DNA of 64,000 nucleotides, taken from the IMG/VR virus record IMGVR_UViG_3300028738_000008; one strand, given 5' to 3'. This stretch comes from a virus. Taxonomy: Duplodnaviria > Caudoviricetes. Of the stretch, positions 30,158-30,487 are shown in pieces. A program made the position numbers and the translations under genes. Positions within the stretch are counted from its first letter, which is position 1; each line of letters starts with the position of its first letter. The notes under the pieces were generated by a model. It did not search any database. It was not told where the DNA came from and saw only the letters and a program-made list of their open reading frames with translations.

Positions 30158-30487
30158 ATGACGTAGGTTAAATTAGTAACAGTAACAAGGAAAGACCTCA
30201 AAGCAGGTTATCAATTAGTACAGTCAGCACACGGCTTAGCTGAGTTTGCACATGTATATCCAACACATTTCAATGATTGGATGCGAGATTCAAAGTATCT
30301 CGTTTCATTGTCAGTCGATAATGAAGAAAACCTCAAAGAATTATTTAGTGAATTAACCAGTAATGGCGCAATCATTGTGGCATTTAACGAACCTGATATA
30401 AATGATCAGCTGACATCGATATGCTTTTATGGTACGCCAGAGATTAGGAAATTGACTGAACATTTAGATTTAGCATTAAAAAATTAA
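30158..30487 (+). CDS. pth2: Peptidyl-tRNA hydrolase, Pth2-like, with in-frame TAG at codon 3
   Basis: ATG ACG TAG GTT AAA TTA..; VTRKDLKAGYQLVQSAHGLAEF..W...YLVSL...FNEPDINDQLTSI; in frame with the track ORF at 30281. Confidence 0.8.

Follow-up and report, generated by a model that had tools for sequence, protein, structure and literature searches.

Phages that have recoded TAG (Lak, crAss-like, and other code-15 phages) carry a tRNA with the anticodon CUA (tRNA-CUA) that is proposed to read in-frame TAG codons in hosts whose own code is the standard one, and the timing of gene translation has been proposed as its role (Ivanova 2014; Borges et al., bioRxiv 10.1101/2021.08.26.457843). Here we analyze 64,000 nucleotides (nt) of DNA from a virus of the class Caudoviricetes (IMG/VR record IMGVR_UViG_3300028738_000008; the whole stretch is referred to as the window), in which a gene for a peptidyl-tRNA hydrolase 2 (Pth2)-like protein, pth2, is preceded in frame by the amber leader ATG ACG TAG and a tRNA-CUA gene lies upstream on the same strand. 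Unlike in the code-15 phages, the genome here uses the standard code, and in-frame TAGs are limited to one or two small genes and a micro-open reading frame (micro-ORF). The TAG lies in a conserved leader at codons 3 to 5, the genes behind it (its clients) are predicted tRNA-end enzymes rather than structural or lysis genes, and the tRNA gene is linked to its client.

Other described systems share parts of this design. The gene for release factor 2, prfB, likewise has a conserved early in-frame stop in a translation-factor gene, with expression set by competition at that stop; however, prfB uses an early UGA and a +1 frameshift and senses its own product directly, whereas the pth2 ORF stays in the same frame and a dedicated tRNA is the likely decoder. 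The bar minigenes of phage lambda (AUG AUA UAA) resemble the leader in being ORFs of two to four codons that end in a stop and in their involvement in Pth biology. They are free-standing, have UAA as their stop, and are known because they are toxic to hosts defective in pth, whereas the mini-ORF described here shares the frame of a 106-codon gene and its stop is always UAG. Arrest-peptide and Pro-stop leaders (TnaC, SecM, ErmCL; C-terminal Pro-Pro stalling) are comparable with the micro-ORF only, which is also a very short ORF before another gene and ends in Pro-Pro-stop, but its putative stall site would be reachable only after an amber codon has been read; we know of no amber-gated leader peptide of the arrest type.

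Many standard-code jumbo and huge phages carry amber suppressor tRNAs without a known target, and the present finding supplies a conserved client, the Pth2-like gene, joined by an HD-domain gene in some lineages. PTH2 has been noted in jumbo phages without mention of an amber codon (Iyer et al. 2021, PMC7824862). Targets of the CUA suppressor tRNAs of Xanthomonas phage XacN1 were sought and could not be identified (PMC5852040), the paper on RsoM2USA merely notes the suppressor, and publications about stop-codon recoding in phages, which deal with TAG used on a genome scale in late genes, mention neither pth2 nor an amber leader. Our full-text literature searches for the combination of pth2 and an amber leader found no prior description. 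Suppressor-tRNA-dependent expression of phage genes is already known; what we rate as new is the defined cis motif, which is compact and searchable, the defined clients, and their physical linkage.

An in-frame TAG precedes the region of Pth2 homology

From position 30158 the window reads ATG ACG TAG GTT AAA TTA GTA, and the frame then stays open until the TAA at 30485-30487. The earliest ATG, GTG, or TTG past the TAG in the ORF list is at 30281, 38 codons downstream, and this start codon lies 3' of the invariant block T7 R8 .. G14 Y15 Q16 .. Q19 .. H22 (TR-DL..GYQ..Q..H). A preliminary description of the sequence had reported the ATG ACG TAG followed by an intact Pth2-like frame to 30487, which is correct as written by sequence, Pfam, profile, and structural model. 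It had also placed the conserved N-terminal block between the TAG and the next start, as the ORF list and the family alignment confirm, and a CUA tRNA about 390 nt upstream, for which ARAGORN gives 388 nt. Because the enzyme can be made in full only if the TAG is read as sense, with the nearby tRNA-CUA as the likely reader, the idea put forward there, that pth2 works as a termination-versus-suppression switch, is supported as well.

The stretch was found in 24 peat-metagenome runs. A 1968-nt contig from a peat-metagenome run not flagged as a source spans positions 29600-30407 with zero differences; since this independent contig carries the identical sequence, the TAG is not an assembly error. 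Nor is it unique to this genome, another reservation of the preliminary description: the same leader precedes 48 of 62 homologous loci, and for this reason the leader is far from chance.

The amber leader is conserved among distant phages

The homolog set consisted of the window, 4 database relatives, and 57 loci from a scan of IMG/VR, with protein identities of 27-69%. A leader was defined as an ATG, one to three sense codons, and a TAG directly before the region of homology. Addition of the loci of phages BF, GAP32, and XacN1, which were fetched separately, gave 38 distinct leaders. Their sense codons vary freely (ACG, AAG, AAA, TCG, CGG, TTA, AAC AAT, AAA GAA ACA, and others), and their stop is invariably TAG, in all 38. 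The nearest database relatives are the huge uncultured phages LR756504, LR745206, LR756501/3 (735 kilobases [kb]), and LR756500, each of which starts with ATG, one or two sense codons, and TAG. Most of the loci that have no leader are either on high-GC contigs or encode versions extended at the N terminus, with ordinary starts. In a maximum-likelihood protein tree, the leader occurs on either side of the deepest split in the main 52-row group, and over the whole 56-row tree the leader label needs about 5 to 7 changes.

The arrangement is also present in cultured phages and is therefore directly testable. Serratia phage BF (locus L062) has ATG ACG CAC TAG AAT and no coding sequence (CDS) annotated at pth2, Cronobacter phage GAP32 (L063) has ATG GCA CAA TAG AAT and a pth2 annotated as a truncated CDS, and in XacN1 (L064) a fusion protein is preceded by ATG AAG TAG ACC. 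The early TAG causes such genes to be missed or truncated by gene callers. BF and GAP32 are 80-90% similar, too close for their upstream conservation to be informative. In Klebsiella phage RaK2, the pth2 homolog has an ordinary start. A related arrangement is found in the Bxz1 group of mycobacteriophages: gp154 of Mycobacterium phage Bxz1, which is Pth2-like, reads ATG TAG GTG, its GTG start is correctly spaced behind a Shine-Dalgarno site, and 300 nt downstream the annotated "tRNA-OTHER" has the anticodon CUA. This arrangement is probably shared by about 200 matching cluster-C1 phages.

Some of the high-GC relatives with ordinary pth2 starts have odd tRNAs nearby, namely, two UCA (opal-reading) tRNAs in L051 and tRNAs to which ARAGORN assigns two-base "anticodons" in L026, L027, L032, L046, and L048.

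The sequence past the TAG encodes a divergent Pth2-like protein

The 106 residues past the TAG pass the Pfam PTH2 family (PF01981) marginally (24.0 bits against a cutoff of 23; E value, 4.6e-5) and score far under the cutoffs of the NCBIfam Pth2 equivalogs. A profile built from 30 phage homologs matched Pth2 chains in the PDB over their full length (E value, 1e-7). The AlphaFold model (predicted local distance difference test score [pLDDT], 96.7) superposes on archaeal and human Pth2 with a template modeling (TM) score of about 0.80, and the top Foldseek matches are Pth2 of M. jannaschii, A. fulgidus, P. horikoshii, and S. solfataricus and human Bit1 (TM score, 0.76-0.81). The pth2 product is thus predicted, on the model, to have the Pth2 α/β fold, and it is under clear purifying selection.

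Compared with archaeal and eukaryotic Pth2 (PF01981; PDB 2zv3, 3erj, 1xty, 1q7s), with which it shares the fold and a significant profile match, the phage protein keeps the Q..H motif and an acidic residue ahead of the final strands. However, the phage subfamily is divergent, with GYQ in place of the G-K motif, EPD in place of DAG, and a four-residue loop missing. In the profile alignment, the G-K position is G-Y, with Tyr15 at least 90% conserved, and the invariant Asp77 of EPD falls within one column of the DAG Asp. The catalytic residues of S. solfataricus Pth2 are, we presume, Lys18 and Asp86. No phage-encoded release factor or Pth1 was found in four complete genomes, those of GAP32, BF, and the two relatives G001 and G002, which were chosen because their Pth2-like proteins are 69% identical to that of the window.

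A suppressor tRNA is linked to pth2

ARAGORN finds 33 tRNAs in the window, and tRNA-CUA is the sole stop-reading one among them; it has no clear parent among the 32 others (best, 73%, Val). In about 38 of the 62 loci, pth2 has a tRNA-CUA on its own strand no more than 3 kb away, often as the only tRNA there, and a tRNA-CUA also occurs beside leaderless pth2-like genes (L043, L056-58, L061). The complete relatives G001 (327,676 base pairs [bp]) and G002 (321,624 bp) have exactly one tRNA-CUA each, 0.66 and 1.1 kb upstream of pth2, whereas the single tRNA-CUA of GAP32, annotated as "Sup-tRNA," and that of BF are downstream of the gene, at 3.1 and 3.5 kb, respectively. The CUA tRNAs of different phages are diverse, with G, A, or U as the discriminator base and different acceptor stems that share no common signature. 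Because of these differences, the inserted amino acid is probably not conserved, and the diversity therefore fits a codon where the inserted residue does not matter.

We propose that codon 3, TAG, is an amber codon that is both conserved and programmed, that translation starts at the leader ATG, and that full-length protein probably requires the phage tRNA-CUA to beat release factor 1 (RF1) at this codon. The ribosome would start at position 30158, read ACG, and meet UAG, where either RF1 would terminate translation and a dipeptide would be released, or the tRNA-CUA, which we infer to be charged and to decode the leader TAG, would insert an amino acid and the full Pth2-fold hydrolase would be made. 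Placing the TAG so early would mean that failed attempts cost just a di- to tetrapeptide and that the inserted residue is irrelevant. The tRNA-CUA would act as a trans-acting licence for the translation of a very small amber regulon, and its gene, the amber-led pth2, and the micro-ORF, itself amber gated and ending in Pro-Pro-stop, would form one compact module in a standard-code genome.

The TAG appears to be read as sense rather than used as a restart point

In 21 of the 38 leaders, the codon after the TAG is ATT, and in 12 more it is GTA, GTT, ATA, or ATG; elsewhere it is AAT (BF and GAP32), AAA, AGC, or ACC, none of which is a start codon. A purine directly follows the TAG in all 38 leaders, and the same holds for 7 of the 8 lineages with internal TAGs. 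A 3' purine reportedly favors amber suppression, and the base therefore matches the classical favorable context. In nine leaders, including those of BF, GAP32, and XacN1, the core motif of a Shine-Dalgarno site starts 8-15 nt upstream of the leader ATG. Several lineages have additional in-frame TAGs inside the enzyme, at codons 30, 34/35, 39, 40/41, and 93 (at least five independent positions), and homology continues across them. These features support a TAG in pth2 that is read as sense and not as a restart point. The gene thus combines what is expected of programmed read-through at the sequence level: a conserved in-frame stop, homology beyond it, and no alternative start.

Several observations weigh against this model. 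When three further genomes, G003, G004, and G005, were used to ask whether every amber-led phage has a tRNA-CUA, that of G003 proved to be 128 kb away from pth2. The complete genome G004 has no canonical tRNA-CUA; what it has, 25 nt upstream of its amber leader, is a tRNA-like element that is D-armless, with a 7-bp acceptor stem, a canonical GTTCGAT T-arm, and CUA within a 9-nt loop; ARAGORN sees this element only at relaxed settings, and the Rfam tRNA model does not score it. The main counter-example is the complete genome G005 (the L031 contig; 360,451 bp), which has the leader ATG AAA GAC ACT TAG ATT and no detected tRNA-CUA. Relaxed ARAGORN searches for hidden CUA tRNAs in G004 and G005 returned mostly false positives, and Rfam found no further tRNAs in 11 loci without a CUA tRNA. 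In addition, near-cognate reinitiation would produce the same preference for ATT, ATA, GTA, GTT, or ATG after the TAG that 33 of the 38 leaders show. The substrate of the enzyme may not be ordinary peptidyl-tRNA, because the GK-motif Lys of canonical Pth2 is replaced by Tyr in this family. Lastly, no RNA or proteome data for the peat phage were found among the runs looked up.

Some of these observations would be accounted for by termination followed by reinitiation, in which ATG-N-TAG is a tiny upstream ORF, translation restarts at the adjacent near-cognate AUU, AUA, GUA, or GUU, and the tRNA-CUA is incidental. ATT and ATA are listed bacterial starts, and G005 combines the leader with no detectable tRNA-CUA, as this explanation would have it. 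However, every leader stops with TAG and none with TAA, although TAA is far commoner, pth2 is strongly linked to CUA tRNAs, and the GTT of the window is, like the AAT, AAA, AGC, and ACC of other phages, not a start codon. Restarts at the deep internal TAGs, which include TAG-ATT and TAG-GTN, would moreover lose the conserved N-terminal block. We therefore regard reinitiation as unlikely. The more specific alternative in the preliminary description, a start at the GTT or TTA after the TAG, does not fit the relatives, given their codons at this place, their further in-frame TAGs, and Shine-Dalgarno sites positioned for the leader ATG.

The leader also heads an HD-family gene and a micro-ORF

The pth2 stop of GAP32 and BF is overlapped (ATGA) by a gene for a 188-amino-acid (aa) protein with an HDxGKP motif; this gene has an in-frame TAG at codon 47 and is annotated as two or three small ORFs. 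In XacN1, an HD homolog is fused to the N terminus of the Pth2 domain, and in LR745206 and several IMG/VR phages an HD homolog within 1 kb of pth2 has the same leader (M-N-T-amber-I, M-K-amber-I, M-L-amber-I). A scan for the HD family gave 19 loci (14 distinct), all of which have ATG, one to six codons, and TAG, followed by ATT or ATA in 13 of 14; no homolog was found in the window, G001, or G002. The model of the HD protein (pLDDT, 96) has its best matches, of moderate quality, among class II tRNA nucleotidyltransferase structures (TM score, 0.55-0.62). There are weak HDIG and CCA-enzyme hints in the sequence and nothing significant in Pfam or PHROGs, and the protein appears to resemble part of a class II CCA-adding enzyme. 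The leader is a shared cassette, since two unrelated genes carry it, and because one of them is related to part of a CCA-adding enzyme, the pth2-like and HD genes probably act at tRNA 3' ends.

The micro-ORF of the window (MRKI-amber-IRPP-stop) has counterparts at the same position in relatives (MKNT-amber-VDIRPP-stop and MEYI-amber-ISIRPP-stop). The 62 pth2 loci contain 17 matches to the pattern M-x(1-3)-TAG-(I/V)-..-(R/K)-P-P-stop, which is found once in a version with TAA, never with TGA or any of five sense codons, and about 0.05 times per shuffle. One copy lies beside pth2 in each of the window, G001, G002, G003, and G004; G001 has one more match elsewhere, which is longer and dissimilar, and the sole match in G005 is a dissimilar one at a great distance from pth2. 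The micro-ORF is mostly upstream of a gene for a 151-aa helical protein and in some phages upstream of the pth2 leader itself. A Pro-Pro-stop context slows termination. We infer that read-through of the micro-ORF TAG may lead the ribosome to a Pro-Pro-stop stall, which would serve as a suppressor-sensing attenuator for the next gene.

A Pth-specific feedback, toward which the preliminary description had extended its switch idea, would be compatible with the proposed model. The leader would behave like a bar minigene of two codons, and the balance of peptidyl-tRNA drop-off, RF1 termination, and suppression would tune Pth2 to the peptidyl-tRNA load; in a variant, the enzyme would deacylate the suppressor itself, in a negative feedback like that of prfB. 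The gene product is a Pth2-fold enzyme by prediction, and the leader is always two to five codons long, lengths at which drop-off is said to compete with termination in E. coli. The presence of tRNA-CUA beside the leaderless Pth2-like genes and Bxz1 gp154 hints at a tie between the enzyme and the tRNA. However, the leader also heads the unrelated HD gene and the Pro-Pro-stop micro-ORF, so it is not special to Pth and is therefore better described as a general suppressor-responsive cassette than as a Pth-specific loop, for which we see little likelihood.

Outside these genes, the genomes keep to the standard code

With code 11, ORFs 100 aa or longer account for 81% of the window; 46 of them end in TAA, 11 in TGA, and 3 in TAG. 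In G001, TAG ends 17 of 259 long ORFs, and no stop is rarer in these genomes. ORF length increases less when TAG is taken as sense than in the controls in which TGA or TAA is so taken, and the window has no other ORF with a credible in-frame TAG. G001 and G002 use the standard code, with 39 and 46 tRNAs, respectively. In a survey of 449 conserved ORFs of the window, G001, and G002, from which shadow frames had been filtered out against longer overlapping ORFs, pth2 is the only one whose orthologs retain an amber leader, and the homology of pth2 begins 38 codons before the first canonical start.

Genome-wide reassignment of TAG (code 15 type), with pth2 as one of many recoded genes, would agree with the presence of a suppressor tRNA and with the low GC content and rare TAG stops, as seen in relatives of recoded phages (bioRxiv 10.1101/2021.08.26.457843). 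It fails for the window and the two complete relatives: of the traits that mark TAG-recoded phages, they have the tRNA-CUA but neither many genes with in-frame TAGs nor a low code-11 density, and, outside shadow frames, their conserved genes have no other internal TAG save one near a C terminus. We consider this explanation very improbable. That pth2 is a broken gene or a sequencing or assembly error, as its treatment by annotators (no CDS in BF, a truncated one in GAP32) might imply, is refuted by the conservation of the TAG across relatives down to about 30% identity, in addition to the identical independent contig and the purifying selection, and its probability is negligible.

In the 449-ORF survey, just one further conserved TAG is flanked by homology on both sides. 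It is found near the C terminus of a 316-aa ORF of G001 and G002 and is followed by about 14 conserved in-frame codons; this tail could be a C-terminal read-through extension. Furthermore, in about 40 conserved ORFs of G001 and G002, homology starts 6-20 codons before the first ATG, GTG, or TTG, which suggests either frequent non-canonical starts or conserved 5' leaders.

Possible roles of an amber regulon

As to the purpose of suppressor-dependent translation of pth2, our preferred reading is that it would make the output of tRNA-end enzymes depend on how much working phage tRNA is available, by way of a delay or of dosage coupling. Alternatively, the enzyme might act on the suppressor in a homeostatic loop, the device might sense RF1 activity, or the bar-like feedback described above might operate. 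More broadly, and tentatively, standard-code giant phages might keep a suppressor tRNA mainly to activate a tiny amber regulon, made up of a transferable leader (AUG, one to three codons, UAG, AUU) on tRNA 3'-end enzymes and an amber-gated Pro-Pro-stop sensor peptide. The loop may be a homeostatic one, in which the enzymes have as their targets the suppressor or tRNAs that host toxins have damaged or blocked, and the regulon may be the seed of genome-wide TAG recoding. The arrangement offers a minimal, perhaps ancestral, state of phage stop-codon recoding, and it points to tRNA 3'-end chemistry as something that these phages regulate tightly.

Neighboring features

The features of the locus and of related loci are collected in Table 1. 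Neither the 98-aa ORF between tRNA-CUA and pth2 nor the 151-aa helical protein had a match in Pfam or PHROG searches, and the former is only a candidate member of the module. No RNA structure stands out near the leader (z score, -1.1), the promoter scan gave a signal no higher than shuffles, and a blastn search of the region against the phage collection gave no match.

Table 1. Coordinates of the pth2 module in the window and of related features in other loci
Feature	Position	Strand	Basis or remark
Repeated short element upstream of tRNA-CUA	29652-29694		
tRNA, anticodon CUA (amber suppressor type)	29698-29770	+	ARAGORN; short variable arm, discriminator G, CCA not encoded
ORF of 98 aa from ATG at 29784, between tRNA-CUA and pth2	29784-30080	+	ORF list; no assigned function
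Amber leader ATG ACG TAG	30158-30166	+	Read from sequence
Predicted Pth2-fold hydrolase ORF, 106 codons and TAA, in frame with leader	30167-30487	+	Pfam, profile versus PDB, AlphaFold model, Foldseek, ORF list
Micro-ORF ATG AGA AAG ATA TAG ATA CGT CCT CCA TAA	30492-30521	+	Four bases past pth2 stop
Perfect 10-bp inverted repeat ATTTGCAATT-CGCA-AATTGCAAAT, between micro-ORF and next gene	30540-30563	+	Read from sequence
151-aa helical protein, frequent pth2 neighbor	30636-31091	+	In 13 loci, homologs downstream of pth2 at no more than about 2.5 kb
Terminator-like hairpin, then T run	31126-31168	+	Consensus scan, pattern match only
HD gene of GAP32	L063:3321-3884		
HD gene of BF	L062:3312-3875		
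HD homolog of XacN1	L064:2452-3000		
Further HD-family loci	L002:2483-3073, L143-L161		HDxGKP protein, amber leader
Other micro-ORF copies	L005:3326, L006:3345, L015:3428, L025:2591, others		Adjoining pth2
D-armless tRNA-like element of G004	L021:2890-2957		
Bxz1 gp154	L106, record 94753-95509		
UCA tRNAs of L051	L051:5529-5703		
316-aa ORF of G001	G001:C1, about 123230-124180	+	
316-aa ORF of G002	G002:C1, about 72370-73330	-	

The terminator-like hairpin is likely the end of the transcription unit. A motif similar to the inverted repeat is present in L006 and absent from L005. The short element upstream of tRNA-CUA recurs several times in a 21.8-kb contig of run X9 and in other contigs, and it looks like a repeated phage promoter or terminator motif.

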